A DNA stretch of 63,913 bases, filler included, from Collodictyon triciliatum (Eukaryota): the NCBI GenBank assembly GCA_043381765.1. It is 10 parts of 10 records of this genome, joined end to end, with 100 filler letters (N's around TTAATTAATTAA, not from the genome) between each part and the next. Parts side by side here need not be neighbours in the genome. Positions count along the whole stretch, not along the records: positions 1 to 6,843 come from JBHJMP010004205.1; 9 more parts are not named here. The stretch is one strand, 5' to 3'. Below the pieces are notes generated by a model. The model did no database searches. It saw only the letters and a program-made list of their open reading frames with translations, and was not told the origin of the DNA. How positions within the stretch are numbered: the stretch's first letter is position 1; each line of letters starts with the position of its first letter. Shown in pieces: positions 462 through 55,700 of this stretch. Made by a program: the position numbers and the translations under genes.

Positions 462-3400
462 TTAATTTTCCTTCTCTAACCAATCCCCAAAGAAGTTTCC
501 AGCGACAGATTCAGTGCTATCAAAGGAGCGGAGCAGTCTTTCGTTGAATTTGGTCAGATTCCTTGCATTTTTTGTAATTATTGCAACACCTTCTCTTGTT
601 CTTGGGTTGTAAAGACGTATTTTTCTATTATCAGGCCTGCTTGTACGAATGAAATCTGTCACATCTATCTTGATTTTAGTTTCATCGGAACCCGAAGTAG
701 TTAGTGGGGCAAAATCCCTACCGATAAAATGTTTTCTTTTGGACGTGTTTTCTTCTGGAGTTTGTAGGCTGCACCAGGCATTCTCTTCAACTAAATCCCA
801 AACTCGTATTGTTCTATCATCGGCCCCTGACACAAGCCATTTTTCTCCATTCGGCCCGCGCGTGCTACAAATACTTCTGACCCAATTCGTATGGCCTTCT
901 AGCACCATGAGTTGATCTCCAGTGACTAAATCCCATATCCTTATTACACCGTCTTTACTTCCAGATGCCAACCATTTCTCCCCATTTGGCCCATCGATGT
1001 TGCACACACTAAGGATAAATTCATTTAGATTGTTCTCCAACAGTTTGATTTGATTGCCACTGGCCATGTCCCAGACGCGTATGGTTTCATCTTCTCCCCC
1101 TGATACTAGCCATTTTTCGTCATCAGGTCCATCGATACCACAAATACACATAACGGGTTTAGTGTGTCCCTCTAAAATTTTAATTTGGCCACGACAGGCG
1201 AAGTCCCAAATGCGAATTGTTTTATCTCCACTTGCTGACGCTAACCATGTTTGCCCTTCTGGTCCTTGAGTAATGCAAAGGCTAGTAATTATGTTTGTAT
1301 GGCCTTCAAACTTATACAGTTCTTTGGCAGAGAACATGTCGCAAATATAAATTGAATTATCATCACTTCCATATGCAAGCCATTTTTGTTCTTTCGGTCT
1401 TGGAATAATGCATATGCTTGTGATGTAGCTCCCGCGATTTTCAAACTGAAGGATTTGGGTTCCAGAAATGATGTCCCAGATACGTGCTGTGCCATCGTCA
1501 CTCCCTGATACCAGACAATATTCTCCATTCGGTCCTCGAGTGCTACAAATGCATGTTATGTCGTTGGTGTGACCCACTAATACCTTGACTTGCTCTCCAC
1601 TAGCTGAATCCCATATTCGAATTGTTCTGTCTATACTCGCAGAGGCTAACAAAATGTCTTCCTTTAGTCCCTGGATGCTACAGACACCAGTGACTGAACT
1701 TATATGACCCTCGAAGATTTTAAATTGGATTCCTATTTTGACATTTTCCATATCAGCCTCGTTGAAATTACAGTCGTAAAGAATTGAATTCGAGAAATCA
1801 ACATCTTTTAGCTGTGCATGAGAGAAATTGGTTCCATCAGCGACTGATTTACGAAGATTTGCCCCAGGGATCTTTATGTAAGACAGGTCCATATCACTAA
1901 ATGATACCCCCATAAAATTCAGAAGACTGATTGCCTCATATGCAGCGCTTGGTTTTTCATCTGCAGTCCTGGATAAGTAAACAATCTCAAACAGATATTC
2001 AATTATTTGTGGACGATTCCAGGTTTGGTCGAATTTCGCATGAGTAAGATTATCACTAATAAACTCTTGAACTTTTAAAAACTTAACAGGTTCATTATCT
2101 TCATCTCTTGAGTAATTTGATAAGTATTCACATGCATTCAGAGATAGATTGTGAATACGCCCGAGCGTGTCAACGAATTTGTCCTTCATTTCTTCCCAGA
2201 ATTCATTGGCTTCATGAAAGAGTCCGAGTCTTCGATATATCACGTCTAATCTCTCACAAGCTATCCAAACATCCCAGTTCTTGTAGTTTGAATTCTCAGC
2301 CCTTCTTGATATTAATGTCTTATAAAGTTGTATGACTATATTATACTCATTTTCTTCTAGCATAATTTTAATAATCGAAATAATTTGGTGCATGTTTGTC
2401 AATGACATGGAAGTTTTTGTTTCTTTTCGAATAGTAGCGGCCTCTTTGAAGCATTCCTTCAGTTGTGCATAACTAATTGAAGAATACAATTAGTCAGTTT
2501 TTATTAGAAACAAATGCAAACAGGGTTACCAATATAAATAAATATAAACAAAAATTAAAATAAGTAAAATTAATGAAAGATAGAGTTAACCTTCTGAGCT
2601 CAAAATTTGTCCTCCCGATATTTTCGAGAGAAGTTGCGTAATCAACATGTTTTTTCCCTAAGGTTCTCTCACGAATTTCTAGTACTTTTAAGTAAGCATT
2701 CAAGGCTGATCTATAACTATATAATAATATTTTAATAGATGGTCAGTTACAAGTTCTGAAATATAAGATACATATTAAGATTGTAAACCCATGTCAATTT
2801 GATAAAATGAAGGATAAAAAAATGGAAGGAAAGAAAGAAAGAAAGAAAGAAAGAAAAGAAAAGAAAAGAAAAAAAGAAAGAGGAAAAAAGGAAAAAAGGA
2901 AAAAGGGAAAAAAGGAAAAAAGGAAAAAAGGAAAAAAGGAAAAAAGGATAGAGGAAAGAGGAAAAGAAAAAGAAAAGTACTCATTAACATCGTGATGGAT
3001 ATTTCCAGCTATTTCATAGCTATCCATGACATTCTGATGATTTTCACCAACGCTTGTGATGTGAATATCCAATGACTGAGTAATTAATGATAAAGCCTCC
3101 ATCTTCCTAGAATGATTGAAAGAACGAAATTAGAAACTAATAAATTTATACTTCTATTCATAAGGTGGTATTTTGATATCTATTGTGTATTACTTCTTGT
3201 TAGCGAGGTGAACTTCAGCCATCAATTGCATAGTCCCCGCTACAGAAGGGTGCTGGCTTCCTAAAAATTTAGTGAGAATCCTCTTCGCTTCCTCGTAATT
3301 ATGCATCGCTTCCTCAAATCTGCTCGGGTTTATTTAAATATTTTAAAAAAAAAAGTCACAGTAACTCCATGTATACCCCAATTCTATTTATCTGTCAGGT

Positions 3401-6400
3401 ATTTAGAAAGAATAAAAATCATAAGAACCGTTTCATGGCTAGATATGCGCGTCCAAAGTTTTGGTATGATGTCGCGATAATAGGGTGTTCATTTCCTACT
3501 ACCTTCAAGCGTGAATCATATGCTTTTCTATAATATTCCATGGCTTCGGCGCTAATTGCACAATGTAAAAGTTTTTTTTTTTTAGTAACATCAGGATATA
3601 ATTATCAACTTGGTAGAATTGCCTACGCAGATTCCATCAGCGAGATGTCTCCAAATCGGTCATATGATTGAGCCACTTGAATATTATTAGCATCCACGTT
3701 CTTTATGAACCGTTCAAGTGATTTTTCATATTCTCTGGTAGCATCATCATGCCTGGAATAAATTGATAAGATCAGATAAAATAATAAATACAAGCATTGA
3801 TTTTGTTGGGCGGATTGCAAGGAATATAAAAGCTCATTAGCATAATTACTTCTTTGTTTGTTGATAAATGAATCCTATTTCATCGTGTATGATTGCAATT
3901 TTAACACCATCGGCTTCTGTTTTTTCAGTCACCTCCAGGCACTTCTGAAAATACGCCATGGATTCATTCCAACTAATTAATTGTTAATTAAATGGTTAAT
4001 ACATAAATAGTTGCATATTTCCTTCTATTGCGTATATACTTATTTTTTCATACTTTTTTAAGTTTTTGTAGACTCGACCAAGAGCCAAGTAATCTGAAGC
4101 TTTGGATTCTGTCATACTACATTTTAGAATCGAGTGTATTGCTCAATAATTGTTCAAGAGCCTTACCCTCAGTTTGTCTATTTTGAATTCTTTTGATCAG
4201 GGCAGACGTCAGAAAAGAATTCTCATACGATTCCAAAAAGAAGTCAACAAGTAAATCTCCTACTTGGTCGGTAGACTGAAGAAAAATCGATGAATAAGGA
4301 AATGCATCTTTATTATTATTATTAGTATTATTATTATTAGACTTTACATTTATGAGTGATGCATATATGTTCTTGTAATTTGCTATTTTCCTCTGATTAA
4401 TAGCCCTCCAAGACGAAAAGAATTCATAACGATAACGCCCACCAAGCATTTTTAAAATAACCTATTTTTAAGATAAAATTTGAAAATAATTGATGTCATG
4501 AGTTTATTTCCCATTTTAAACATCTCGCCCGAAACTACCCTAATCCAGATTCTAATGTTACAATTTTTTGGTTTTATTTAATATATCTAATTAAAAATAT
4601 GTGGGATGAAAAAAAATTGCGAATATTACATGCTTTTGCTTGATAAATTCAACCAGCAAATCAAATGATTGTCCTTCAAGGAGTTGATAAGATATTTCAG
4701 CTGCCAGCTCTTCATCTATACTCTCCTTATCAGAATACTTTCCAAATAACCATTTTCCGAACTGTTGATGTACTTTTATTTTGTCTGCATCCTTCAAGAA
4801 TTCTTCTTTTACTGTATCCGAAAGCAATTGGTGCAGATACATATACCTGCGTTATATATAATTTGGTACCATGTTCAATCATTTGCATCAACAAAAGATA
4901 AAGGAATGATAAAAGTGGACTAACCTTCCATTTCTGACAAAGAGGTAATCAACCAGTGTGAAGAAAAAGGACTTCCTGGATTGATCGATGCACAATTGAA
5001 GCATTTAGGCATGACTCTCTTTTGACTACAACTCATATATAAAATCCTAGTTAAAGCAGAGGTATGTATCTATATTAATTCAAACCATTCTGCGAGGTCG
5101 AATTCTTGTCCAATCGAATCTTTCACATAAGAGTCCAAATCGCTTTCACTTAGACCGATACGAGAAATTAAAAGAATTTTCATAGACACTGCAACAAACG
5201 AGGCACCTGGTAGTCCATACAGATACATAATTTGAAATATATCGAGGTAAGTATATGTTTTGATTAGCAATAATGGACCATAAAATTACAGCTATTTTAT
5301 GAGGAGATGACGCGATACCTTCTTTATCATATTTTTTAATCCAACGTCGTATCACAGTGGTATATAATTCTACTACCCCATTTGTCGATAATAATCCCTT
5401 TAATTCTTCATTTAAGCTATCATAAACACCAAACACTCTGATCTCGTCCAAGATGATACGTAAATATAGAGGATGACCTGGTACAGAGTAATTTTGAAGT
5501 TAAATATATGCACACAAATATAGGGAGAGGACAATATTATTAATTAGTTGCCTGTATCTGCGTAGTCTTCAAGTATCATATTAATTTGAGCTTCATCCAG
5601 GGCTTTGTCATATATTTTCAAAAAATTTTCAACTCCTAATCTAACTTCTTCACGTTTTAATTGTGAGACAGATAATATATCTAATCCATTTTGAGTAGCA
5701 ACCTATTGTTTTAAATAAAATGGAATTGCCAATATATTTATTACTGTATTAATAATCATCCATCTGTTCATTTCCACACAATTTTATTGATATTTCGATG
5801 TTCATTTACATCTCATCCATAGACGATTAGAACGCACCTGGCATGATTCATGGTTTTCGATAGTTGAAATGACTACTGCAACATTTTTTGGTGTTTTATC
5901 AGGTAACCAGGTAAGCAAATGTGGTGCGGAGGTCCCTTGCGATGGGGATATTTGGTTTATTGCGTCGATGAGGAAAACAAATTTTTCAGGTCTGTAAATT
6001 AAGGTGTGCTAAGTGGATATTGATACAATGTTTCAAGATATTTATAAAGAAAATTGTGTATAAAATTGTAGTGACTTATTGCTTCGTTGTAACATTGTAA
6101 ACAATCCACGCAGGCCCTCTTTTTCATATTCTATTTGTAACAAAAAAAAATTAAGGCTGTCTTAGCCACCATCAGCGTATTTAAAAACAGCAGTATAAAA
6201 GTGATATTGTAATATTTTATTTTATTTTATTTTTACCAATTTCATATTTTTTCTCCCCCATAAAGTGACTCAGTTTTGTGACTGAACTCCAAAATCGAAT
6301 TGAAATACTAGATTTCATTCCATTTTGAAAAAATGTTTAATCATACTGCGATATGTGGAATACAATTCAAGACATTTTTGTTACCTCTCAACATATGTGC

Positions 6401-6563
6401 TAAGATTTGTACAGCCGACAAAGTGAAATAGTATGTTTAACTCAGGGTCATTCAATTTTTCTAAATTATTAGATGTCGCAGCCATCAAGGATGATTTCCC
6501 TATGCCAGATTGCGCAGCAAGAACAGTAATTTTGCAGGATCCACTGCTTAACTGGTTCTTTAT
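462..6563 (-). CDS. Multi-exon STAND/NACHT NTPase (TEP1/NPHP3/NWD-like) with a TPR array, pentapeptide repeats and C-terminal WD40 repeats; 5' end missing (scaffold end)
   Basis: Hand-spliced exons give Walker A 'VLAAQSGIGKSSLMA' followed by 'ILFHFVG' (~6390-6563), Walker B 'FVFLIDAINQI...LTWLPDKTPKNVAVVIST' (~5860-5990) and 'GHPLYLRIILDEIRVFGVY'. Six TPR exons lie at 2591-3972. The 2011-nt last exon (2472-462) has 'IPGANL...TNFSHAQLKDVDFSNSIL' and about 7 'EGHT...WL.SG..D.TIRIWD' WD40 repeats. Confidence 0.85.
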
Positions 6564-6843: not shown

Positions 6844-6943
6844 NNNNNNNNNNNNNNNNNNNNNNNNNNNNNNNNNNNNNNNNNNNNTTAATTAATTAAN
6901 NNNNNNNNNNNNNNNNNNNNNNNNNNNNNNNNNNNNNNNNNNN
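6844..6943. other. Artificial scaffold spacer N44-TTAATTAATTAA-N44 (first of nine; others start at 13786, 20702, 27644, 34580, 41514, 48449, 55383 and 62317)
   Basis: An identical 100-nt unit with stop codons in all six frames recurs every ~6.93 kb. Confidence 0.97.
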
Positions 6944-9266: not shown

Positions 9267-12256
<2,990 letters not shown>

Positions 12257-13133
12257 GGGACCACGTTTTGTATCAAAGGCCCAGAGGCATTCAGGTCATA
12301 TCCCAGCCCAAACACCCAGTCGCAATAAACAACCAAAGAAAGCAAGACTTGGAACAGAGCAAACAAACAAGCAAACAAGCAAACAAGCAAACAAGCAAAC
12401 AAACAAACAAACAAACAAACAAACAAACAAACAAACAAACAAACAAACGCCCAAAAACAATTGGGTCTACGAATGCACAATTATGGAATTTATACTAGAG
12501 ATAATTCAATGTGCAAATTTGCGTTTNNNNNNNNNNNNNNNNNNNNNNNNNNNNNNNNNNNNNNNNNNNNNNNNNNNNNNNNNNNNNNNNNNNNNNNNNN
12601 NNNNNNNNNNNNNNNNNNNNNNNNNNNNNNNNNNNNNNNNNNNNNNNNNNNNNNNNNNNNNNNNNNNNNNNNNNNNNNNNNNNNNNNNNNNNNNNNNNNN
12701 NNNNNNNNNNNNNNNNNNNNNNNNNNNNNNNNNNNNNNNNNNNNNNNNNNNNNNNNNNNNNNNNNNNNNNNNNNNNNNNNNNNNNNNNNNNNNNNNNNNN
12801 NNNNNNNNNNNNNNNNNNNNNNNNNNNNNNNNNNNNNNNNNNNNNNNNNNNNNNNNNNNNNNNNNNNNNNNNNNNNNNNNNNNNNNNNNNNNNNNNNNNN
12901 NNNNNNNNNNNNNNNNNNNNNNNNNNNNNNNNNNNNNNNNNNNNNNNNNNNNNNNNNNNNNNNNNNNNNNNNNNNNNNNNNNNNNNNNNNNNNNNNNNNN
13001 NNNNNNNNNNNNNNNNNNNNNNNNNNNNNNNNNNNNNNNNNNNNNNCTTGCAGAGCGCGAGTGGATCAAAGAAAAGAACTTGAATGGCCATAAAAGGAGA
13101 GAGATGGGGAGCGGCTCATAAACCAAAATGAAT

Positions 13134-13206: not shown

Positions 13207-13885
13207 TTGACATATCGTTATATGGAAACTAATATAATAGAATACATAAAATGATAATTTGGGTTTCCTGTCTTGTTCGTTTAACTTTTGATTCGCATAG
13301 ATAAATGTAAGTTAAGTGCTTCCTTGCACTTCTATACGGTTGTAAGCATCATTATAAATTTGAATATCGTGTATTTGTGCGTACAGTCTGATCTAATTAG
13401 ACTTTAAGAGACTAAAACTATAAATTCCGCAAATATCAAAGACCACACAGGCCTGTTCTTTTCTTTCTTTTTCTCTTTCCTTACGCATTCGATTTGCGTT
13501 GCTTGGAGAAATGGTTGTTGTGAAGAGCCAAAGTCTGTGTGTATGGGATGCGGAAAAGATCGACCACCAAGTGAATGGAAAAGATAAAGACACACGGGAC
13601 GTGTTGCGTGGGTCGATCGGCGATTATCCTGCCGAGAGTGTTTGATCAACACAGCAAACAAGAGCAAAGCAAAGCCACTGGTATGTCCTTTCTCAAAGTC
13701 TGTGCAGTAGGTTCTCTTGCCAACTCGGAGACTTTCTACTCTGAAAGGGTTCGGCGCAGCAGAGACGATGGGAAAAGCTGCTCGGNNNNNNNNNNNNNNN
13801 NNNNNNNNNNNNNNNNNNNNNNNNNNNNNTTAATTAATTAANNNNNNNNNNNNNNNNNNNNNNNNNNNNNNNNNNNNNNNNNNNN

Positions 13886-20701: not shown

Positions 20702-20970
20702 NNNNNNNNNNNNNNNNNNNNNNNNNNNNNNNNNNNNNNNNNNNNTTAATTAATTAANNNNNNNNNNNNNNNNNNNNNNNNNNNNNNNNNNNNNNNNNNN
20801 NCTTCTTTTTCTTCTTCTTTTTCTTCTTCTTTTTCTTCTTTTTCTTCTTCTTTTTCTTCTTCTTTTTCTTCTTTTTCTTCTTCTTTTTCTTCTTTTTCTT
20901 CTCTGCCCCATAACCAGTATGTATGATTCCTTTCTTCTGAATTGTTGAAGATGTATTAATGTTCTCTCAG

Positions 20971-27458: not shown

Positions 27459-27825
27459 GTTTGTTCTTATCCATGGGCGCTCTCTCTCTCTCTTTCTATT
27501 TCTATTTCTATTTCTATTTCTATTTCTATTTCTATTTCTATTTCTATTTCTATTTCTATTTCTATTTCTATTTCTATTTCTATTTCTATTTCTATTTCTA
27601 TTTCTATTTCTATTTCTATTTCTATTTCTATTTCTATTTCTATNNNNNNNNNNNNNNNNNNNNNNNNNNNNNNNNNNNNNNNNNNNNTTAATTAATTAAN
27701 NNNNNNNNNNNNNNNNNNNNNNNNNNNNNNNNNNNNNNNNNNNAGTAGCGTCCATGCAAACGATGGCTAGCGAACCAAAGCCAACACCCCCCCCCCCCCC
27801 CCCCCCCCCCCCAAAGATAAAAAAA

Positions 27826-31328: not shown

Positions 31329-31878
31329 CATGTATGTATGTATGTATGTATGTATGTATGTATGTATGTATGTATGTATGTATGTATGTATGTATGTATG
31401 TATGTATGTATGTATGTATGTATGTATGTATGTATGTATGTATNNNNNNNNNNNNNNNNNNNNNNNNNNNNNNNNNNNNNNNNNNNNNNNNNNNNNNNNN
31501 NNNNNNNNNNNNNNNNNNNNNNNNNNNNNNNNNNNNNNNNNNNNNNNNNNNNNNNNNNNNNNNNNNNNNNNNNNNNNNNNNNNNNNNNNNNNNNNNNNNN
31601 NNNNNNNNNNNNNNNNNNNNNNNNNNNNNNNNNNNNNNNNNNNNNNNNNNNNNNNNNNNNNNNNNNNNNNNNNGTATGTATGTATGTATGTATGTATGTA
31701 TGTATGTATGTATGTATGTATGTATGTATGTATGTATGTATGTATGTATGTATGTATGTATGTATGTGTATGTATAAGTAGTGAATGAATGAATGAATGA
31801 ATGAATGAATGAATGAATGAATGAATGGATGGGTGGATGGGTGGATGGGTGGATGGGTGGATGGGTGGATGGATGGAT
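31329..31878 (+). repeat. Compound microsatellite (TATG)n - gap - (TATG)n (GAAT)n (GGAT/GGGT)n
   Basis: Seen directly in the sequence. Confidence 0.95.
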
Positions 31879-34579: not shown

Positions 34580-34679
34580 NNNNNNNNNNNNNNNNNNNNN
34601 NNNNNNNNNNNNNNNNNNNNNNNTTAATTAATTAANNNNNNNNNNNNNNNNNNNNNNNNNNNNNNNNNNNNNNNNNNNN

Positions 34680-34932: not shown

Positions 34933-37900
34933 ATGCAGACATCAGACACAAACACCAAAGCATGGGGATTATTGGAGGCCAAAATCGACTCCCTGAAGTC
35001 TCTTGAGCTAACAGGAGAGGTTTGTCAAAGCCATTGATTACATATTTTTATGTTCAACTCCGCTTACAATTCATTACTTTTTGGCAGTCTGTCTTGACGA
35101 TGGGGCGGAGCACTGAATGCCACCCAGATTTCACGTTTCCATCGGTAAAGAAGATCAGTCAAGTGCACTGCACGGTTTTCAGAAAGCAAAGCGAAGACGG
35201 AAAAACATATACATTTCTAGAGGATAAAAGGTTCACGCTTGGGTCTTTCCAAACGACCTTATTTGCTTTCCTATTCTCGTGCAACAAAACAAAAGTTCAT
35301 CATACGTTCCTGAGGCCAGCTCCCAGACATATTGTTTGTAAATACGCTTTGAGGACTGATTTCTATTGAAATAGCTCGAATGGAACATTCGTAAATGGGA
35401 AGCGTGTTGGGAAAGGAATACTGTATTCGCTAAAGGACGGTGATTACATCTCCCTCACTTTGACAAAGAATGCAGATTACTCAGATGGTTTGTCACATCT
35501 ATTTTATTCCTGCTTCAAAATTTTCATTCTTGTGGCCATGAGGAAGAATTTAGTGCCAATATTTCTCCATCACAATTCATTTGGGGTTTTATTCTTCATC
35601 CGCAATATGCAACAAGTACAGCTGCGGTACTCTACAAGTTCCAAGACTTGACTCTTCCAAAGAAGCCAATTGAGCGCTACGACTCCAATGCAACCGAACC
35701 TGATGTTTGATTTCTAAATATGAGATTCAAGAGACCTGAATATTTGTGTACCTTATTCTCGATTTCTGTGTAATTTCTTTTAAAATGAATATGATTCCCA
35801 CACTGGGTTGAAAATGTAAACAGATTGTCTTTGACCATTTAAAACACCACTAGAGCGACACAGCAACAGAGCCGCTAGATGAACAGTCGGTAGGCGCAAC
35901 AGAACAAGTGTGCAATTCTTTTTCTTGCTTTTTATATAGTACCACAGAAGAATATTTTACCATAATGCGCTTCAGAGAATCGTTCTATCTTCCATTTTGA
36001 ATTTATGTCTTAATTTCATTGTTTAATGGTCCTTTATCTCTTACCTTTCAACTGCCGTAGGACGGGGCACGAGCTGTGAACCTCCCTGAGGCACAATCGC
36101 CTTGTGTTGAGGAAAATCTATGCGAACCAAAGACAGAGCCAAAAAGTGTTCCAAAGTCAGATTTAGATGAGAGCAACATAACAGAAGCAAAATCAAGTAC
36201 CACAACCGAAGTAAAAGCAGAAACCAAAGCAGAAACCAAAGCAGAAACCAAAGCAGAAACCAAAGCAGAAACCAAAGCAGAAACCAAAGCAGAAACCAAA
36301 GTCGAATCCAAGCCTGTGGCTGAGAGCTCAGTAAGCTAATAAGTTTCATATTTATGATTGCTATTAATGTGGAGCTTTATCATTAATTTTTATTTTCCCC
36401 AGTCCACTGATATCGAAGCTGAAATCACTTGTGGCATCTGTTTCGAAGTCCTGTATGGCTAATCTCATTCCATTTTCTTCTTCCTGTCTCTTTTTCTTTT
36501 TCTCTTCTACCTTTTTTCTTTTTTAAGTATTACCTATATTCTCAATCATTTACCTCCCATTGAGAAAAGTGTAACTGAGGCAGTATTCATCCGAATGGTT
36601 TACTATCGTATTTTCTTTTCATATTTTTGCTGTTTTCTAGCAACCTTGCTATTTTCTCATGAAAAAGAATCGCTACCAATCGTTACGCTTTTTTTTTTAT
36701 TACCAAATACAGATATCGCTGTGTTAGTTGCATTCCATGTTTACACAATTTCTGCTCTCCCTGCTTTTCTGATTGGATGATAAAGGGGAACACGTGTCCA
36801 GAGTGTCGTGTTCGCGTTAAAGAGGTATGCGTTTGTTTTGGCAATTATGTTGAAAGGCGCAAACGATGTCAGTTTTCTGTTTCCTCGGTGGGATGTTTTG
36901 ATACATGCCATCGAATATCAACCACATCAACTCTGCTTTTATGTCCTACCATTTCTCAGGTTCAAAGAAATCATGCAATCGCAAATATTGTCGACCGTTT
37001 CCTTGTGGCCAATCCAAGTCGCGCGCCAACGGAGGAAAATAAGAAGCAAATGGATTCTAGGGACAAAATAACATCGGATCATGTTTGTAGCATTCATTCT
37101 AAATTATTATTTACAAATCTTCGACACCATTTCTTCCACCAATTTTACTCTAACATCCACTATGTCTTTTTATTTTTATTATTATTCCTTGCTCGCTCAA
37201 GCCTTTTCATAAGAGCCACTAAATTATACTATATAAAGTTCAAATTGGAAAAGAAGAGGAAAAGGCGGTATAATTATGATGAAGATGACGAAGATGAGGA
37301 TGAAGACGAGTACGAAGATGAAGACGACGACGATGACGAAGGGGGTCACCAGCCGTTCAGACCACCATTCTTTGGATTTCTTAACCAGGCCACGGTGAAA
37401 TGTAGAGAGTGCACCGTACCAGGTTTGTTGCTTCGCTCAATGCATTTCCTCTTCAATTTCGTTATATGATGTCGTGTAGTTGCTCTGAATGAATAGTTTT
37501 TTGTCATGTTTTTGAGCGTGAGTGTTCCTAACCACTTTCGTCGCAACCACCTGACAGGAAAAGATGGGTTTCAATGTCCTCCTGTGAATCCTCTGCACTT
37601 AAATTGTGCAGTAAGCCATATTTAATTTAGTGCTCCCCATTCTTTCACATTTTCTGATAACCACAAAAAGTATTCTGCAAGTCAAACCTCTTCCACTAGA
37701 TCATAGTTACTTTTTTGTTGCATGATTTAACATGTACTTCATCTCACCCACTTGCTCCTCTCATTTCTGCTGGAATAATTTTGAAATTAGAACGCTTGTA
37801 CAACTCCTTATCATATACTGTCTCTGTAGTTCTGCCAAGGGTTGATGCCAAACCGCCCGGATAATGCAATAGCTCAAAGATGTAGCATTCTTAATTTTTT

Positions 37901-39590: not shown

Positions 39591-39923
39591 CAATCCATCA
39601 TACCAATTACGATTTCCACCAAAATAGGAAATAGCACGACGAAACACTGTTGAGTTATCCACATAAAGACACCGTTAATTCCAGCTTTGTTTGATTGACA
39701 TTCGGTGCGAATGCGGCGATCCGATCGAGCAGATTTTTNNNNNNNNNNNNNNNNNNNNNNNNNNNNNNNNNNNNNNNNNNNNNNNNNNNNNNNNNNNNNN
39801 NNNNNNNNNNNNNNNNNNNNNNNNNNNNNNNNNNNNNNNNNNNNNNNNNNNNNNNNNNNNNNNNNNNNNNNNNNNNNNNNNNNNNNNNNNNNNNNNNNNN
39901 NNNNNNNNNNNNNNNNNNNNNNN

Positions 39924-41273: not shown

Positions 41274-41739
41274 CTTATCTCGCACTCAATAGAAAATATT
41301 TTACCAACGTCTTTTTTTTTTTTAATTATCGTTCGATTTTTAATATTTCTTTGAAAAAAGGGCGACGAAGCAACCAGCACCTGAAACAAAACCTCTCCCA
41401 TCGTTCTTCTTCATCTATAACCCAGCCATTAATGTGGAAGCTGACACCACGGTAACCAACTCTTTCTTTTTTTAAAAAAAACAAAAAAACAAAAAAACAA
41501 AAAAACAAAAAAANNNNNNNNNNNNNNNNNNNNNNNNNNNNNNNNNNNNNNNNNNNNTTAATTAATTAANNNNNNNNNNNNNNNNNNNNNNNNNNNNNNN
41601 NNNNNNNNNNNNNCTTTGCTTTGCTTTACTTTACTTTACTTTACTTTACTTTACTTTACTTTACTTTACTTTACTTTACTTTACTTTACTTTACTTTACT
41701 TTACTTTACTTCCGACACAGACCACTCCCCAGCCAAGGA

Positions 41740-44700
41740 ATGGATCCGCGGAGACAGTCTGGCCCAGCTTTTTCGCCTGCCAACTCGCGTCTGAGTGTCA
41801 ACTCCGACCGCTCGCAAAACTGGACACCGCATGACCGCCCAACAAACACATACGAACTTGCCCTAACCATCATGGTCACAACCGACCAGATTGCACTCAA
41901 CTCATGGATGCTTCGTGCAGAGGAGCTCATCACTATGTTTGAGAACCAGCACGAACCCCACCTTGCCATCGAAATCCTCTTCCTCCTGACTGCTCGCAAG
42001 AACGTGGCCACTCGTGTGGCCATTGCGCTGGAAAAGTACATTCGTAAAAACCTTGTCCGTGACTTGGACTTTCTCCTGAGCATGAGCCTTGTCCTTGAGT
42101 CGATTCCTCTGATTGAACTCCAACCAGCATCGCACCAGTATCTATTCCAGTGCTTTCTGGCTCTCACTTCCAACATTGTCCACGACACATACACGTGTGA
42201 TGAGCATCGCCTCATGGTTGTTGCCTGCATGATGGAATCTCTCATCGATGCAAAAATCACTTGCACTTTCGACCCGAATTATGCTGAAAGTCTCTCCATC
42301 CTGCAGAGCATGGGCAATAATGAGAAGGACATATCCTTGTCCAGCGCAGCCTCTTTCATTGAGGAACTCATCAAGCGTATCCATCAGCCCATCACAGCCG
42401 GTGGTAATCCGCGCCTTAGCACAAGCTCGAGCATTCATCCTGCCACAACAAGAACTTCTATATCAAGGACTTCTATCTCAAGAAACTCCATCTCTGGCTT
42501 GTCTGCTTTTCCTTTCGGAGAACAGACCGTTGCCCGCAGAATGAGCTCCATGTTCTCTGGTCGCTCAAGAGACATGACCCAGACCGCAGAGTGGTTCACC
42601 CTCTATTCTGAAATTCGTGAAGCCTATCATACCCGCCCGGATGGATTCCTTGAAATTCTGATTGCCAAAGAAACTAGCAAGGACTGGGAGAAGAAGGCGA
42701 AGAGCTTTCGTGAAGGAATTATGTTCTTTTATGCAAACATGTTGCGGTTCTTCATCCGTGTATTCAATCGGACAAGATGTGAAAACGCCCGTAGCTTGAT
42801 TCAGCAAATCACTCTGAAAAAATACTATCGAGATAGCGAACCAATGAAAAGATTCTTTTTTGTTCATCTGGAGCCACTAGTCCGCGACCCAGATGATACC
42901 ACGAGGCGCATCTTTTCTCAAGCCCTTGCCCCTTGTGCAGATTCTCGTAATAGTGTGAAATCTCACCGTCCAGACATATTTACCCAATCAAAGTACCAAT
43001 CTATCAACAACCTAAAAGACCAGTTCAACTTTGCCATGTTTCAAGGTTCTAAAGACCAAGGACAAGTGGTTATTGATTTTGTGTATGGACTGCGCGACCA
43101 TATTGTCAAATTACATAATTACTCTTACTTCCGCGCTACGTGTGCTGACCGGTACAAAGAGATCCCTGTTTCTGGCTCCCCTCATTCCCCCATCCCATCA
43201 CGCTTACTGGATTGGAAGGACCGTATCAGCAGGTTCATGTCCTCCAAGTCTCTGAAGTACCTGATTATTGGGGGTTCTTCAGGGATAGGCAAAACAACCC
43301 TTGCTACGAGCTTGTTCTTACAAGAGCTGATAAACTGGAACGAGTCTAATCACTTCCCATTATATTTCAACTCATTTGCAAAAACCTTCCTGAGAGGAGA
43401 AGAATTTCCCCTGTTTGACGAGGCCTGGTACCATCCATTCAAATACCACCTCTATCTTACGGACGAATACATCCTTCCAAAAGCTTTAATATACTGGTGT
43501 CAATCAAATTTCAAAACACTGTTTATTGTTGATGGTATGACATCGAAGGACATCATGGCTGATAACTTCTTTACAAAATATTCCACCTCTCAGTGGGCCC
43601 AATCCAAGTTTATATTCCTTGTGCGTTCAGAGTCTGAAGAGCAATTTGTATCCATGTCTGACCATTTCATCTTTAATTCGGGCACTCAGCCTACTGAGCC
43701 TATCGAAACGGTCGACCATGTCTATATTCCGCCCTTCAATCACACCGAGATTATAAAATATGCCGAAGCACAAATCGCAGTTCGGCAAGGTGTTGAGTTT
43801 GGCTCATCCGAATTTCAACTTGTTTGCGATGCTGTTTCAAAATCCCCATTCTATTCGATATTTATGAATTCTCCATTTTGGTTGAGCGCTCTGCTGTCCA
43901 TTCCAAGCAATATACTCTCTGCAACGTATTCTCAAGATGATGATTCTTCTGAATCCTTTAGTCTGACCGAAATGTATCTCATCGAGCAGTATGCAAGAGC
44001 CGAATTTGCAAAATACATTCTCCAAGACCTACCTGAAGGGAGCGAACCCAGCAATCTGGAAGCAAGTATCGATGCCTTTTTCCAGTACCACCAAGATGTT
44101 GCATATGTTATGTTCCAAGACAACCGCGCGCCGATATACTCAGACAAATCCGAGAAGGCATCGGTCTCTGAAGCAAATGAAAATTTGAAAAAATATTTTA
44201 CTACCAGTATTTTTGACCAATCTTCAAGAAATATCGACTCTTTCATTTCTAAAGCTGATCACTCTACCTTTGTGTTTCAGAACTCTATCTGGTATTTTTT
44301 CATCGCATCAAAGATATCAAAATTGATTGTTGCGGGTGACCTTGCATGTCTTTTGAATCCCCTTCCTGAGAAGGTACTCGAGTATCTCTCCAAAATGGCC
44401 CATGATGGCTCCCCCTTACGAGGCAAAATCATCGAGTCATTACAAAACCCTACCACTCGCAGAGATAAAATTGGTCCTATTCTTCTATTGATTCTTGCCC
44501 ATTCTAAGATTCCTATATCAAACATAAATCTAACTGGGATGGACGTTGGGAAGCTTGACTTGGACCGATATTCTTTTGAAAATGTGAATCTCTCAGGCTC
44601 CTCTGCTGCATCCCGATTCACCCGCATGCATCTGAGAGGCTGCAATCTAAACTCTTTTCGCTTTACATTGGCTTCGATGGACTGGTTTCCTGCTCTCCCC

Positions 44701-47061
44701 GCCGCACCAAATTCCCGTTGTGTTGTTGTTGATGAAATAGGTGATACTATATATACTGCAGGACTAACCAGCTACACCAAAGCCAAGGTGATGGATGTGG
44801 CCAAAAAGGATACCCAGGTTGACTACTTAATTACTTCCATGGCATATTCAGCTCATTTAAATAATCCAGGGCTGGTTCTTGGATCTGGTGACGGAAAAAT
44901 CCACTTGATCAACCAAAAGGGTAAGGACGTGTTGCTTCTGCCAGAAGAGGACTCGCTTATTGTCACACTAAACATTGTAGAGGTAGACCAAACACGTCCT
45001 ATCATGGTTATTGGGAGGGAGGATGGAACCCTGTCGCTGTGGGACGTCAACAATCACCGCTCGCCTAAAATTATACACGCACACAAAAAGCAGGTCAATT
45101 CATCTTGCTTCTACCGAGACGAAAGTGATGTGGTATATATTGTGACAGGGAGCTCTGATTCCTTCGCCAAGGTCTACCAACTCACTGGAGATTTATGCTT
45201 TGAACTCCCGCATGAGAAAGAGGTGCTCTCTGTCTCTGCATATTCTGATAAACAATCCATGAAATGGATCGCCACTGGATGCTCTGATGGTAACATCTTT
45301 GTTTGGGATGCCCAAACAAGGGTTCGTGTGAAACACTTTAACATCCCCAGTAATAGAGTTCACAGTTTAGTGACTTTTTTGACCCCAAATTCAAAAGCCC
45401 CATTCTTAGCAGCTGGTGGCTCTTCTGGTGCGGTTGTTTTGTGGAATTTGCTGACCAACGAATGTGTAGCCAGCTACTGCAATCACTATGAACCAGTTTT
45501 GCAGCTAATTGTGTTTAAAAGACCCAATAAAACGCAGTATCTGTCTTCGCTCAGTGCTGATGAGACGGTGCATTTAGTTGATCTGTCACAGATTCCATCG
45601 CAATCGAACGAGTCCAACATCCTGGGGTCTGTTTACAACCTCCACTTCCATAATCTTCACGGAAGAACTTATCTGTTGACAAGCTCGTTTGATGCAAAGA
45701 CTCGATTGTGGGATGTTTCCTCGCGAACTTTCCTAAGGTCATTCCCTATCAAGACCTCGTCCGTCATCCACTCCTCTGTAGCAAATATAAAGGGTTCCGA
45801 CTATGTTGTTTCTGTGGGCTCAGACGCTGTGATTACCCTTCATCCTTTGGACAGTCTCAGCCCCGATGAAAGTCGAGATATTCCGCTCGATTCATACGTA
45901 GCATCTGCTTGTCGTTTAGATAGGTCAGACGGAAAGCCATTTATTGTCACCACTCATTTGGACAACACAGTAATCATTCATGACCTCGAGTCTGGTGATC
46001 AAAGCTTTTGTACGGTTGTGGATGGAAAGCTTATCACCAGTGTGACTGCTTATTACGACGAGAGTAATTCAGAGACTATCATATGTGGTTGCTTGGATGG
46101 ATTCGTAAAGATCATCTCCACAAAAGATGTAGAGGAGCCCTTGCAAGCTGACATTGACATATGCAAAACATCAATACTAAGCGTCAAGATTCTGGCATCT
46201 AGTCCTGGTCATATGAGTGTTGTTGCAGTATCTAGCAAGGGCATCATAAAGTCTCTCGACTTGGAAACCCTTGAATCTAATTGGGAGAATGATGCTTCGA
46301 GTCAAGGACTCGGGAATATTGTATGCGCAAACGTATTTCAGAACGGGCTCTCTGCTAGAGAAGATGGGGAGAAACAAAACGGTCTGTATTTTGTATGTGG
46401 ACACGAAGAAGGTTTTATCTCTATCTGGGATGCTGCCGATGGCTCCTTTGTGAAAAAAGCTATGGTGCATCACCACCAGATAAGGACCATTGAACCCTGC
46501 CTGTTCTCAACATCGTCCAACCAAAGTCTCTTGGCCACAGGCGCTGCCGACGGTTCCTTTAGAATTTGGACGATATCCGAAGACCAAGGACAAGGGATTC
46601 AACTTCATCTCTCCTGGAGTGAGCACAACACTACATTTGTAGAATCGACAACCATCGAGAATGCCAATCTCCTCGATTACCAACGCAAGTTCTGGTTGCA
46701 AAAGAAGGACTCTAATCCTGATACGCGTGCAAGTGCTTCGACGCATACCACGCGCCAAGTTGATATTCTGTTGGAGAACTGCCACTTCCAAACGCATCAG
46801 AATAATTGTGCGGGAATTTTTGAAATGGGAATAAGGTACGAGTATGGCATAGGGGTGCAGCAAGATGCCCGGTTAGCACTCTTGTTTCTCCAGAAGGCCA
46901 AAGATATGGGATCTGTGGATGCGCATGTGGCTTTGGCCTCAAAAGACTTGTTTTCTGCTGACATGGCGGTGAGAGATAAAGCACTAAGCGATATCAAGGA
47001 GTTGGCTGAGACAGGACAAAAGGATGCCGCTTCTATCCTCGAAAGAATCAACAAAGAGTAA
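41740..47061 (+). CDS. Intronless 1773-aa NACHT NTPase with helical N-terminus, degenerate pentapeptide region, WD40 beta-propellers and a C-terminal Sel1-like repeat
   Basis: Single ORF. Walker A 'LIIGGSSGIGKTTLA', Walker B 'LFIVDG', 'SPFWL' (NPxxL-like), 'INLTGMDVGKLDLDRYSFENVNLSGS', many WD40 ends (DGTLSLWDV, DGNIFVWDA, DAKTRLWDV, DGSFRIWTI) and Sel1 'FEMGIRYEYGIGVQQDARLALLFLQKA'. Confidence 0.9.
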   Translation: MDPRRQSGPAFSPANSRLSVNSDRSQNWTPHDRPTNTYELALTIMVTTDQIALNSWMLRAEELITMFENQHEPHLAIEILFLLTARKNVATRVAIALEKYIRKNLVRDLDFLLSMSLVLESIPLIELQPASHQYLFQCFLALTSNIVHDTYTCDEHRLMVVACMMESLIDAKITCTFDPNYAESLSILQSMGNNEKDISLSSAASFIEELIKRIHQPITAGGNPRLSTSSSIHPATTRTSISRTSISRNSISGLSAFPFGEQTVARRMSSMFSGRSRDMTQTAEWFTLYSEIREAYHTRPDGFLEILIAKETSKDWEKKAKSFREGIMFFYANMLRFFIRVFNRTRCENARSLIQQITLKKYYRDSEPMKRFFFVHLEPLVRDPDDTTRRIFSQALAPCADSRNSVKSHRPDIFTQSKYQSINNLKDQFNFAMFQGSKDQGQVVIDFVYGLRDHIVKLHNYSYFRATCADRYKEIPVSGSPHSPIPSRLLDWKDRISRFMSSKSLKYLIIGGSSGIGKTTLATSLFLQELINWNESNHFPLYFNSFAKTFLRGEEFPLFDEAWYHPFKYHLYLTDEYILPKALIYWCQSNFKTLFIVDGMTSKDIMADNFFTKYSTSQWAQSKFIFLVRSESEEQFVSMSDHFIFNSGTQPTEPIETVDHVYIPPFNHTEIIKYAEAQIAVRQGVEFGSSEFQLVCDAVSKSPFYSIFMNSPFWLSALLSIPSNILSATYSQDDDSSESFSLTEMYLIEQYARAEFAKYILQDLPEGSEPSNLEASIDAFFQYHQDVAYVMFQDNRAPIYSDKSEKASVSEANENLKKYFTTSIFDQSSRNIDSFISKADHSTFVFQNSIWYFFIASKISKLIVAGDLACLLNPLPEKVLEYLSKMAHDGSPLRGKIIESLQNPTTRRDKIGPILLLILAHSKIPISNINLTGMDVGKLDLDRYSFENVNLSGSSAASRFTRMHLRGCNLNSFRFTLASMDWFPALPAAPNSRCVVVDEIGDTIYTAGLTSYTKAKVMDVAKKDTQVDYLITSMAYSAHLNNPGLVLGSGDGKIHLINQKGKDVLLLPEEDSLIVTLNIVEVDQTRPIMVIGREDGTLSLWDVNNHRSPKIIHAHKKQVNSSCFYRDESDVVYIVTGSSDSFAKVYQLTGDLCFELPHEKEVLSVSAYSDKQSMKWIATGCSDGNIFVWDAQTRVRVKHFNIPSNRVHSLVTFLTPNSKAPFLAAGGSSGAVVLWNLLTNECVASYCNHYEPVLQLIVFKRPNKTQYLSSLSADETVHLVDLSQIPSQSNESNILGSVYNLHFHNLHGRTYLLTSSFDAKTRLWDVSSRTFLRSFPIKTSSVIHSSVANIKGSDYVVSVGSDAVITLHPLDSLSPDESRDIPLDSYVASACRLDRSDGKPFIVTTHLDNTVIIHDLESGDQSFCTVVDGKLITSVTAYYDESNSETIICGCLDGFVKIISTKDVEEPLQADIDICKTSILSVKILASSPGHMSVVAVSSKGIIKSLDLETLESNWENDASSQGLGNIVCANVFQNGLSAREDGEKQNGLYFVCGHEEGFISIWDAADGSFVKKAMVHHHQIRTIEPCLFSTSSNQSLLATGAADGSFRIWTISEDQGQGIQLHLSWSEHNTTFVESTTIENANLLDYQRKFWLQKKDSNPDTRASASTHTTRQVDILLENCHFQTHQNNCAGIFEMGIRYEYGIGVQQDARLALLFLQKAKDMGSVDAHVALASKDLFSADMAVRDKALSDIKELAETGQKDAASILERINKE

Positions 47062-48429: not shown

Positions 48430-49415
48430 TTTCTTCTTTTTTTTCTTCNNNNNNNNNNNNNNNNNNNNNNNNNNNNNNNNNNNNNNNNNNNNTTAATTAA
48501 TTAANNNNNNNNNNNNNNNNNNNNNNNNNNNNNNNNNNNNNNNNNNNNTTTTTTTTTGTTTTTTTTGTTTTTTTTTTTTTTTTTGTTTTTTGTTTTTTGT
48601 TTTCACTACGTAAAGCATCATCTCTGCTTTGTGGAGGCCACAAGTTGTACCCTTTTTCTTCTTTTTTTATTTTTTGTTGCCGGGCTGGAGTTGTGCGCGA
48701 TCGCAGTACGGGATTCGGCATGTGGGTTTTGGTTTTGTCGTGTTTTGTTTTGTTTGTTTGGGTGATTGTGTGTGATCAAAAGGAATGGAAGTGGGAGAAG
48801 GTTATTATCATTTGATGTCATCATTTGTCCTAAAGTGGGGACTAGATACCATAAAAGGATAATGGAAATGTCCAATATCGGTATGAAATCGAAATACACA
48901 TTAGGTTATAGATTTACTGAAGGAGTAATTTTTTCCGTCTGGATTTGAATTTCTAAATCTAGCTTGAGATAGTTGGTTTGAATATATCCATTTTTAGAAA
49001 GGACCGATTGTTCGTGAGTTCCGTCATGTTTTTTTACTTGAAAATATTTTTTTTAATTCCACCGTCGCTGTGTTTCCTTCATCCTCCTATAACCCGGAGA
49101 TGAACAATCGCGGCCGTCACATCATTTTGAGGCTTTTCTCCCTCTCTTTAACTGCCGCGCATTTTACTTTTCAAAACGTCGAGGATGTTTGGAAGTTGCA
49201 TCGCTTTTTGCCACGATTAAGGGGGGAAAAAAAGTGTCCATCTTTTTTTTTATGTAGTGACTTTGCCCAATCGGTTACACGCGGCAGAAATATATAAAAT
49301 CTGACTCACACAACCCAGGGAAAAAAAAAAAGACTTTGCCATGATGAATGGAAGGTAATTGGAACATAGTGTCTGGAGCTCGTTTATTGGAGCTTTGATT
49401 AGTGTTGCGTAGGAA

Positions 49416-52400
49416 TTATTTCTTTGTTTTGAGTCTCGGTTTCGCATTCGTCGATGGGGCTACAACTTTCTTCTTGTTTCTGTTGCGGTTCTTGACATTT
49501 GCCGTGGCGTAGTAGTGGACTCCAACCTTCTTTTTGTTTGTTGTCTTTCGCTAAGGAAAAAAAAAATTAAATAAATTGGATATGTTTTGCGATAAAAAAA
49601 ATACGTATTTTTTTCTGGAAGAGACATTATTGAAGTGTGCAATTGTGGGTGGGGAAAATACCTTCTCTTTTCCATTTGCCTCGACATCCTCCGACGCACT
49701 ATCTTCTCCGCTTTGACTTTCGTCCGCACTCACCTTCGTCTTGGGTTTGGACTTCCACTGTGACTTTGGGCTTTTACTTTCTGGCTCTTCAGCGGCTTCC
49801 TTCTTTGTCTGTGTATGAGTTTGCAAGTTTGTGAGCGTTTGGTTAATGTCACACAGAGCTGCGTCATAGTGCCGCGTCAAAAGGAATTCATGCTTTGCGC
49901 GATAGAAACATGAATGAATTCAAGCAATAAAAATCAACGAAGAAAGCAAGGGTCATGTCTCCAAAAGGGTAATTATAAAAACGATGGGGGGTAACCTTTT
50001 TCTCGCTTATTTTAGATTTCTTCGATGGGAATAAGGCAGCTCTCTGTGCGTGCGATTCTATTATATGTCAAACAGCACAGTTAAGTCATACATAATGTTG
50101 TAAGCCATATTCTCTTATGATTAGGTAGCAAATAGCCTTACCGTCGGTGAGCTCTCTCTTGGAAGAACTTTTGTGTGTATTACATACGAAATAAATGGTA
50201 GGGGAAAATTGTCAGGGTTAGAGGCACATTATAGCTTCTTTTTTATTTTATTTTAGAAGATATAAAAAAAATCACGAATAAATTTCTGTTTAAAATGTGA
50301 CATGTATTAGAAATAACGTCAGAGTGCCCCAGTCGTTTGAAAATATTTGCTCAAAAAGAAAAGAGAAATAGTTTCGCACCTTTTGTCACCCTTGGTCGGC
50401 GTTTCAGCTTTGCCTTTTTCTGCTGAATTAACTTTTGTCGATTTCGTTGGTAATAATGATTTTCCTTCCTGTTTCTTTGTCGTTGATGAATCATCTCCGT
50501 CATCTGGTGATTCAGACCCATTCACGAGTTCGTCCCAAGATAAACCAATCTCATTTTCATGTGCATCGTCTGCCTCCTCCTCCTCCTCTTCATTTTCCTC
50601 ACCATCATCCTCTCCATCCTCGTCTTCGACTTCCTTTTTTTCTTCACTTGCATTCTCTAGTGCCTTTTTTGGTCGCACTGCTGTCTTTTCTTCTTCGTCA
50701 TTTTCATTTTCGTCATCACCTCCCTCTAGGAAATAAAAAGAAAATTCAGTATTTGAATATAGGTATGAATTGTATTAGATAATTTAGAACAAACCAGTAA
50801 AATATATATGCATGGATAAAAGAAAACAATACCATTTTTTCCCTCTGGACCTTCACTATCATCACTTTCTAAAGTTCAAATATACACAAGTTATATGGTG
50901 TTTTTTTTTTTAAAAAAAAAATAAATTAATTTAAAAGCCGAATCTGGGGCAGAAAACTCTCATTATGAAGTATCAATCCAACTACATGAAAATAATATTA
51001 TATTTCGAAAAAAATAATCCGCACCAGGGTCACTCTTATATACGTCATCCCAGTCAATGGCGTTTTCATCTCCCAAATCAACTTCAGAAAGTCCCTCAGG
51101 AGCTCTTGTGTCATCTTGGTCATATTCAACACGCACATGGATATTTCTAATTTGTTGTGTAATCTGCAATCCTTCGGTCTAAGAGAATTTCACATTAACA
51201 AGGCTTATACTCCATCGCATATCGATTATATGCATAATACGTATACCAAATTACACAGACAAGAGAAGGAGGGTGTTATCGTCTCATATAGGCCATATCC
51301 TTTCAGAAAGTAATGATATTTTCTTACATCAGCAGCTTCACTGGGCTGAATTGAATCACCAGCCATCGGAGGCATTGTAAAGTACGGAATTCGACCCCTC
51401 TGCATATCAGCAAGCACAATTTTCGCACACGATTTTGTATCAGGCTCCCCGCCCTAATCATCATCAATATGTATAATTATATTTACAAACAAATAAACAG
51501 GAACAAAAAAAAATGCACTTTGATCTATTATATGCTTAAGTGAGCCTTTAAATTTTACATATTTTTGAATGCAATACACGGAAGAAAGAAATCTAACTTT
51601 AAGCAATCTGCCAGAAACTTTGCAGATTTGCTCCAGAAAATCAGTCGCGTCCTTCCATTCTTCGATTTTGTATGTGCGCCTTTACATGATGAGGCAAAAG
51701 ATTTTAAAACATGTCATTTAAAACAAAATGTGTGCTTTGAATAGGACCAAAGATAGTATTTTATCTTCCTACTGAAGATAATCCTTTTTGACTCGTTTTA
51801 AAACCTCAGGAATATAGTCTTCGGGTGTTTGTAGATTCTCAATTCTCACCTTTGGAATGAGTGAAAATCAGATGATCAAGTATCATATTTATAATCAATA
51901 TTCGCTACCAATCTGAATATATATGTATACATATATGCAGCCACTTACCACCCCTTTTAGGACAATATCAGCCTCGGAGTCTCCTGAAGGATAAACCACT
52001 CCAGGACAATCGATCAAGTATATTCTCTTAAACAGGGTGATGTATTGCCACACCTGAAAAATAGATAAGAATTATATTGGAGAGGAAATGAGTACATGAT
52101 TTGACTCCTAAATTGAAACGACGGTTGCTGTGCCAAGACACTCTTTAAAAGAAAATAAATGGCTTTCACTACCATGGAGTATATTTGAAATCATTTTAGC
52201 ATACAGAGGTTTGAAATGAAAGCATAAAATAGTTGCCTTTGTCTCTCCGGGTATGGGTGCCACTTTGCAGACTTTCTTCTTTCGAAGAGTATTGATAACT
52301 GAGCTTTTTCCGACTGCAGAGATGTGAGCATGAGATATTTTGATCACTGGTCATAGCTTTAATGCTTTATCATTCTCTCCTCTTTTTTCTCGTAATACCT

Positions 52401-55382: not shown

Positions 55383-55482
55383 NNNNNNNNNNNNNNNNNN
55401 NNNNNNNNNNNNNNNNNNNNNNNNNNTTAATTAATTAANNNNNNNNNNNNNNNNNNNNNNNNNNNNNNNNNNNNNNNNNNNN

Positions 55483-55558: not shown

Positions 55559-55700
55559 AACAAAAAAAAGAAACAAAAAAAGAAACAAAAAAACAAACAA
55601 AAAAGCGAGCAAATTACCTCACACCATTCTCCGAGATATGTTCGCCCTCGTGTATAACAGGGAGCCTCTTCTCCTACTCACACGCCTCCCCGTTCATCAG

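Follow-up and report, generated by a model that had tools for sequence, protein, structure and literature searches.

The window analysed here is a stretch of 63,913 nucleotides from the deep-branching protist Collodictyon triciliatum (GenBank assembly GCA_043381765.1). Its first contig (positions 1-6843, JBHJMP010004205.1) carries on the minus strand a gene for a nucleoside triphosphatase (NTPase) of the STAND type, in which six tetratricopeptide repeat (TPR) units are each encoded by an exon of their own. Probably, these exons are constitutive, anciently duplicated blocks of a fixed six-unit TPR array which belongs to a multigene STAND NTPase family. The units are colinear between family members, their lengths and number are fixed and the units of one gene resemble each other little, which argues for an array that is old, colinear and fixed.

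Six TPR exons of one phase

The TPR cassettes, T1 to T6, occupy the following positions.

3850-3972, minus strand: TPR cassette T1, 123 nt, phase 2 to 2, 41 amino acids
3627-3752, minus strand: TPR cassette T2, 126 nt, phase 2 to 2, 42 amino acids
3429-3551, minus strand: TPR cassette T3, 123 nt, phase 2 to 2, 41 amino acids; TPR_10 at 28.5 bits
3194-3319, minus strand: TPR cassette T4, 126 nt, phase 2 to 2, 42 amino acids
2981-3106, minus strand: TPR cassette T5, 126 nt, phase 2 to 2, 42 amino acids
2591-2716, minus strand: TPR cassette T6, 126 nt, phase 2 to 2, 42 amino acids; the best-conserved unit, 60% identical to residues 1331-1373 of P0002, a homologue from Diphylleia rotans

An initial annotation had proposed these six exons with one TPR unit in each, and it holds for the coordinates, the lengths (123, 126, 123, 126, 126 and 126 nt) and the 2-2 phases. 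On the minus strand every cassette is preceded by AG and followed by GT, and just one of its three frames is open (offset by one base). Each cassette corresponds to one KLC-type TPR unit, with TPR_12 matched by all six exon translations (E <= 0.12); the curated Pfam cut-off is passed singly by two of them, T6 (TPR_12, 31.2 bits) and T3 (TPR_10). A window-independent test was made with a profile built exclusively from 30 units of Diphylleia homologues and run on the window, cut into 2,920 six-frame pieces. The first six ranks are taken by the cassettes (E from 8.8e-14 to 0.013), and the next piece has an E value of 5.4.

The Pfam matches on the cassettes begin at position 18-21 of the TPR_10 and TPR_12 models, and the exon boundary is out of register with the Pfam repeat. 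The intron would thus fall between helix A and helix B, so that each exon probably joins helix B of one repeat to helix A of the following one.

When the introns between exon I and T1 and between T6 and the last exon (exon L) are included, the array contains seven consecutive phase-2 introns, of 81, 97, 75, 109, 87, 264 and 118 nt. The calculated chance that six further introns match the phase of the first one is about (1/3)^6 = 0.0014. The GC content of the TPR exons is 36-44%, versus 20-29% for the introns. The 264-nt intron between T5 and T6 consists almost wholly of a microsatellite which is purine-rich on the plus strand, with units of the AAAGG/AAAAAAGG type (window positions 2790-2985). 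Similar low-complexity runs occur at the ends of most contigs of the window.

The first ~200 codons of exon L are helical, TPR-like by eye and intron-free, and the unit profile finds no unit there. The pattern of one repeat per exon therefore ends after T6.

The regular phase could also come from parallel intron gain, in which introns would have entered an originally intron-less TPR array in separate events, always at an identical site of the repeat, for instance from a spreading intron element. The intron-free helical stretch of exon L and the uneven intron density of the repeat region fit with this scenario, but the seven introns share no sequence and range from 75 to 264 nt, and the duplication of exon and intron together is a simpler way to obtain the same phase and repeat position seven times. 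Parallel gain is thus very unlikely. In the preferred reading of an ancient duplication, a unit made of an exon plus its intron would have been duplicated in tandem before the family diversified, leaving one repeat per exon with a phase-2 intron each. The units would then have evolved separately, while keeping their position, their length and position-specific residues.

Homologues in Diphylleia rotans

Used as the query of an exhaustive search, the last exon had 255,686 matches at E <= 0.001, mostly through the WD40 repeats. The three parts of the gene model which lie outside WD40 were compared with the best 150 of these 255,686 matches and with P0001, a pentapeptide-repeat protein. Within this set, the NTPase part matched six proteins and the TPR part four; all three parts were matched by P0002, P0035 and P0140, and the TPR and linker parts by P0003. 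These four proteins, and three more which were obtained by a search with P0002, are transcript-derived open reading frames (ORFs) of Diphylleia rotans (EukProt).

The model is 26-42% identical to the seven Diphylleia ORFs, and the ORFs that were compared are 27-46% identical among themselves in whole-protein BLAST; more distant relatives are at 22-25%. No Diphylleia ORF matches any contig of the window at high identity. From these values the source organism is probably related to Diphylleia, in the CRuMs group, or else the gene is a paralogue that has not been sampled. Had the gene been single-copy, the initial annotation would have counted this against its own proposal; the seven paralogue-like ORFs show instead that the gene has a family. 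The TPR part is 38% identical to P0002. The linker (35%) and WD40 (37%) have similar values and the NTPase reaches 51%, so that the TPR region is not unusually diverged in comparison with the linker and WD40.

Two other searches were less informative. When the linker of exon L was used in a word-based search, proteins of similar length gave no match, and longer proteins gave P0001 alone. The Pfam matches of the five top hits of the exhaustive search were dominated by beta-propeller families and are uninformative on the NTPase parts.

Colinear units and the shuffling question

Exactly six back-to-back units are present in six of the eight family members. The arrays of the model and of P0002, P0035, P0154, P0155 and P0140 align directly, with unit lengths of 41-44, 42-43, 41, 42, 42 and 42 residues from T1 to T6. 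The 41-residue length of T3 is common to all six arrays and the length of T1 to four of the six, which indicates that these lengths predate the divergence of the family.

When the 36 units of these six members are compared, 35 have their positional counterpart in another gene as best match, and not one of the 36 is closest to a unit of its own gene. The one non-colinear unit is T5 of the most distant member. Within the gene, units are 15-34% identical as protein (6-14 of 41-42 residues) and 39-52% as DNA, which is about background.

The window was also inspected for traces of exchange. No direct DNA repeat joins cassettes or introns, the microsatellite of the T5-T6 intron being the sole repeat family. 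No extra, broken or antisense TPR-like piece was found among the 2,920 six-frame pieces of the window, where the cassettes are the sole matches below E = 1. A T6-like match of 41 amino acids at 49472-49594 (E = 0.16) is without Pfam support and was taken as chance.

These results bear on the main claim of the initial annotation, i.e. that the sensor region may be diversified by shuffling of the TPR exons, as in Ectocarpus. According to this proposal, cassettes would be exchanged, duplicated and lost within and between paralogues, which would diversify ligand binding. In its favor, the 126-nt exons, the 42-residue units and the repeat type are as in the Ectocarpus NB-ARC-TPR genes, as far as these are described in the available text of PMC3341825, the gene belongs to a multigene family, and STAND-WD40 genes are found on two of the ten unrelated contigs of the window. 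On the other hand, unit number and lengths are conserved, within-gene identity is low, the introns hold neither inactivated or antisense TPR exons nor repeated DNA, and the repeat domains align directly here, which is not the case among the Ectocarpus paralogues according to the same source. Colinear exon relationships, which the initial annotation had itself named beforehand as evidence against its proposal, are what was found at the protein level for 35 of the 36 units. Sensor diversification by exon shuffling is therefore unsupported, given the colinear units, the conserved number and lengths and the lack of pseudo-exons in the introns. At the protein level, and for the family members seen, it is contradicted, and shuffling of the Ectocarpus type is extremely improbable for this gene.

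Skipping of the cassettes

The initial annotation had also pointed out that the cassettes can be skipped without frameshift. This is correct: the skipping of cassettes stays in frame, and no forward exon-skipping join makes a stop codon. Regulated alternative splicing is thus another way in which the array could be used: cassettes would be skipped singly or in blocks, giving sensor isoforms of varied length with no genomic shuffling, comparable to the skipping of exon 5 in human NLRP3. All cassettes go from phase 2 to phase 2, and some donor sites seem weak on inspection, such as those of T3 (GTTCTT) and T6 (GTTAAC). In addition, exon modularity with borders at the same repeat position is described as a precondition for the splicing of leucine-rich repeats (LRR) in human NLRs (PMC6642158, available text). 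However, the six units are kept in all six family members that have the array, and a search with P0002 640-1400 gave, for the same gene, the full-length cluster and no ORF that is one unit shorter, which is a weak argument (the search covered ORFs of 1,440-4,584 amino acids). Regulated skipping of this kind is unlikely.

A more ambitious version of this idea would be a death switch made of a TIR-like NADase and a NACHT domain, with a sensor of TPR, pentapeptide and WD40 repeats, whose six TPR exons are skipped under regulation to tune or diversify sensing in a deep-branching protist. We regard this as a distinctly unlikely reading. If it were true, cassette skipping would parallel, by means of splicing and outside animals, the skipping of exon 5 in NLRP3, and the near-identical register with the brown-algal NB-ARC-TPR exons would point to a STAND sensor module with one KLC-type TPR per exon that is either very old or repeatedly re-invented.

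The gene model

The window consists of contigs of about 6.8 kb chained by nine N44-TTAATTAATTAA-N44 spacers (six-frame stop linkers), at 6844-6943, 13786-13885, 20702-20801, 27644-27743, 34580-34679, 41514-41613, 48449-48548, 55383-55482 and 62317-62416. The window is thus made of separate contigs, and gene neighbourhood across the spacers carries no meaning. The other four N runs (12527-13046, 31444-31673, 39739-39923 and 56463-56841) are ordinary gaps. The 5' end of the TPR gene is truncated by the end of its contig.

The gene model, which was refined by comparison with P0002, comprises 18 exons separated by 17 introns, of which 16 are GT-AG and one is GC-AG; it is open over 1422 amino acids, with a stop at 462-464. 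The domain order is a P-loop NACHT-like NTPase, the TPR array, pentapeptide repeats and a WD40 propeller. From exon A onward the intron phases are 2, 1, 2, 0, 1, 1, 2, 2, 0 and 1, before the seven phase-2 introns over the TPR array. The features of the contig outside the cassettes are listed below.

6844-6943, no strand: artificial contig join, N44-TTAATTAATTAA-N44, which removes the 5' end of the gene
6385-6563, minus strand: exon A, 179 nt, phase 0 to 2; first exon on the contig, presumed Walker A GIGKS, AG acceptor and GT donor
6237-6307, minus strand: exon A2, 71 nt, phase 2 to 1; positioned through its SISIRFW stretch, homologous to P0002, AG/GT borders
6076-6130, minus strand: exon A3, 55 nt, phase 1 to 2; positioned through its KEGL stretch, homologous to P0002, AG/GT borders
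5838-5991, minus strand: exon B, 154 nt, phase 2 to 0; presumed Walker B FVFLIDAINQ
5552-5702, minus strand: exon C, 151 nt, phase 0 to 1; GC donor at 5551-5552 (GC-AG intron)
5319-5477, minus strand: exon D, 159 nt, phase 1 to 1; region of the GHPLYL motif
5086-5206, minus strand: exon E, 121 nt, phase 1 to 2; NTPase part which resembles a winged helix, 56% identical to P0002 895-939
4925-4975, minus strand: exon F, 51 nt, phase 2 to 2; junctions AEWKSFFFTLVD...VRNGRYMY, the same or nearly the same in P0002
4630-4846, minus strand: exon G, 217 nt, phase 2 to 0; helical part
4167-4461, minus strand: exon H, 295 nt, phase 0 to 1; helical part and an Asn-rich insert (24-residue gap in P0002)
4054-4108, minus strand: exon I, 55 nt, phase 1 to 2; leading half TPR (ESKASDYLALGRVYKNLK)
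462-2472, minus strand: exon L, the last, 2011 nt with the stop; encodes the helical linker, the pentapeptide repeats, the WD40 propeller and a C-terminal tail

The alignment of the model with P0002 covers 1321 columns, of which 560 are identical (42%) and 38 are gaps. The splice model is supported by this alignment, because it has no gap at any predicted junction. The junction of the GC-AG intron after exon C reads ADTGHPLYL and its P0002 counterpart HDTGHPLYL; the conservation of DTGHPLYL supports this junction. In Pfam, exon L matches Pentapeptide (43.5 bits) and, in six stretches, WD40 (184.7 bits), and it is colinear with P0002 1376-1934.

Possible transcript evidence comes from the public run X1, whose identification as RNA is a guess. 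Contigs of this run fit at 400-1433, 1551-1797 and 6423-6563, and none fits within 1898-6391. On the 3' exon, the fit is at least 99% in two of three pieces. The contig at 6423-6563 parts from the window precisely at the predicted acceptor (6563). It continues with 226 unlike letters, and the first 30 of these match nowhere in the window when up to 3 mismatches are allowed. This is a weak hint of a spliced transcript whose upstream exons lie outside the window. At 1433, the contig ends with 21 loose letters which we take to resemble the reverse complement of a template-switch (SMART-type) oligonucleotide. If this loose end truly is such an oligonucleotide, X1 would be cDNA, and transcription of the 3' exon would follow.

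The exon pattern could in principle be an artefact of chance or assembly, or the gene could be dead. The assembly is fragmented and the gene has lost its 5' end, but 1422 amino acids are open across 17 introns, the model aligns over its full length to a transcript ORF, exons and introns differ in GC content and X1 contigs fit the 3' exon closely, in two of three pieces. The probability of an artefact or a pseudogene is therefore negligible.

The NTPase module and the family

The model contains in order two motifs, GIGKS in exon A and FVFLIDAINQ in exon B, which we take to be Walker A and Walker B. Exon A has weak Pfam matches to AAA_16, NPHP3_N and nSTAND1, and is 58% identical to P0002 639-698. 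Exon B matches NACHT (PF05729) at model positions 76-129 with E = 0.01 and 16.1 bits (cut-off 26.7 bits). The NTPase of P0002 is just under the cut-offs: NACHT 25.4 bits, nSTAND1 24.5 bits and NPHP3_N 23.1 bits (cut-off 24.8). Two more distant relatives, P0167 and P0158, are over the NACHT cut-off, with 36.4 and 41.7 bits. No NB-ARC match was obtained on the exon pieces or on the first 1100 residues of P0002 (E <= 0.01), and no LRR family is among the Pfam matches of any piece of the gene. The term NLR-like, used in the initial annotation, is thus acceptable in the broad sense of a STAND NTPase with a NACHT-like P-loop followed by repeats; the gene is neither of the NB-ARC-TPR nor of the NACHT-LRR kind.

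The first 1100 residues of P0002 contain a calponin-homology (CH) domain (43 bits) and a DUF4062 domain (42.5 bits), and the DUF4062 part matches the solved TEP1 domain 11gz with E = 3.7e-14. Within residues 1-640, the CH domain comes before DUF4062, and an RWG motif lies inside the DUF4062 region. P0156 has NPHP3_N over its cut-off (29.3 versus 24.8 bits), DUF4062 (43.6 bits), TPR_NPHP3 (50.6 bits, cut-off 100) and TPR_12, while DUF4062 is assigned to P0155 by precomputed PF13271.

According to the available text of a preprint (bioRxiv 10.64898/2026.09.21.753143), DUF4062, also called TeTIR, is a TIR-like NADase which stands directly before NACHT in TEP1, NWD1/2, TTC41 and NPHP3; TeTIR-NACHT proteins carry WD40 or TPR repeats behind, and a few protists have members. 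The available part of another preprint (bioRxiv 10.64898/2026.05.01.722283) describes the NADase activity of DUF4062 in a bacterial defence system and in TEP1. Because its paralogues carry DUF4062/TeTIR, the gene family groups, by its predicted domains, with the TEP1/NWD/NPHP3 STAND proteins. An assignment as NPHP3 orthologue was rejected: the scores on NPHP3_N (P0002) and TPR_NPHP3 (P0156) are under the cut-offs, and the pentapeptide and WD40 repeats are extra. By its sequence, the gene is a relative of the NPHP3 clade and not an orthologue.

The predicted architecture of the family is (CH) - DUF4062/TeTIR - NACHT-like NTPase with an NPHP3-type helical part - six KLC-type TPR - helical linker - pentapeptide repeats - one or several WD40 propellers, and it is seen in full in the closest homologue, P0002. 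Both repeat types, the six TPR cassettes and the WD40 propeller, occur in one protein. If TEP1, the TNLs of plants and the DUF4062 systems of bacteria are taken as analogues, the C-terminal repeats may bind a ligand or a partner and keep the NTPase off; ligand binding would permit a nucleotide-dependent oligomerisation, which in turn would activate the N-terminal TIR-like NADase.

Several observations weigh against the picture of a constitutive, frozen array in a TeTIR-NACHT gene. NACHT is under the Pfam cut-off both for the gene of the window, where the match covers one exon, and for P0002, and DUF4062 is seen in the homologues P0002, P0155 and P0156 only, the N-terminus of the window's gene being beyond the contig. 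The arrays of two of the eight family members, P0003 and P0156, differ or match poorly, so some remodelling occurred at deeper divergence. The case for constitutive inclusion of the cassettes comes from the ORFs of homologues, which are Trinity assemblies of another organism or of other paralogues. The comparison of units between family members covers their protein sequences. Finally, the profile used to count units in the family included the counted sequences; only the 30-unit homologue profile is free of this circularity.

Other contigs of the window

A second STAND-like gene is present at 41614-47061 on the plus strand, as an intron-less ORF of ~1,800 amino acids with the P-loop GSSGIGKT. 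Its scores on NACHT (18 bits) and nSTAND3 (19.6 bits) are under the cut-offs, as is a Sel1-like match (25.9 bits). A WD40 propeller is found at residues ~1020-1400 and again near the C-terminus, and it is through WD40 alone that this ORF is related to the TPR gene. That two contigs out of ten random ones carry STAND-WD40 genes is a hint that the repertoire may be large.

Ordinary eukaryotic gene pieces are present on the plus strand of other contigs, at 10667-11053, 55658-56113, 36663-37469 and 57073-57537. The domains found there are the second KH domain of KRR1 (59.4 bits), RING-H2 (53.2 bits), a weaker RING and thioredoxin (34.8 bits).

Significance

The gene is a further case of two known kinds, TeTIR-NACHT STAND proteins and repeat-per-exon sensor domains, and its combined tail of TPR, pentapeptide and WD40 repeats is somewhat unusual. 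If the reading as an old, constitutive array is right, it provides a clear example of a repeat array which was made by exon duplication and then frozen. It also records a multigene TeTIR/DUF4062-NACHT family in a barely studied eukaryotic lineage, which may be used to trace the origin of the STAND proteins of the TEP1/NWD/NPHP3 type and of TIR-like NADase effectors. The TPR exon array gives no evidence for a diversity-generating immune system in protists. Its importance would rise only with cassette skipping in cDNA or with cassette turnover among genomic paralogues.

Comparison with known systems

The Ectocarpus precedent invoked by the initial annotation is correctly cited: the available text of PMC3341825 (Zambounis et al. 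2012) reports 124 TPR exons of 126 nt in 13 NB-ARC loci. In both systems, one 42-residue KLC-type TPR unit is encoded by an in-frame exon of a STAND NTPase gene, and the motif printed in that paper suggests that the exon border lies close to the start of helix B in both. In Ectocarpus, inactivated TPR exons are found in introns and the repeat domains of paralogues cannot be meaningfully aligned, according to the same text. In contrast, the gene described here has a NACHT-like NTPase, no inactivated exons in its introns, a fixed number of units and colinear units, and two of its six exons have 123 nt, the other four having 126 nt.

The likeness to the TeTIR/DUF4062-NACHT family lies in the order of P0002, where DUF4062 stands directly before the NACHT-like NTPase with the repeats behind, in the RWG motif, and in P0156, which passes the cut-off of NPHP3_N and shows TPR_NPHP3 and TPR_12. 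TPR, pentapeptide and WD40 repeats are however united here in one protein, whereas the available text of the preprint (10.64898/2026.09.21.753143) describes WD40 or TPR, and P0002 adds a CH domain which that text does not mention. The gene is not orthologous to any human member of the family.

The LRR domains of human NLRs, as presented in the available text of Hoss et al. 2019 (PMC6642158), share with the TPR array repeat exons of constant size, borders at the same position of the repeat and the possibility of in-frame skipping; the repeats are TPR here instead of LRR, with one repeat per exon and not two. The NLR-like proteins of fungi, with NACHT or NB-ARC and TPR, WD40 or ANK repeats, are also built from a STAND NTPase and repeats which form a superstructure and are not LRR. 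The repeats of fungal NLRs are often near-identical and intron-less. In the Collodictyon gene, in contrast, the units are old, diverged and split by introns.

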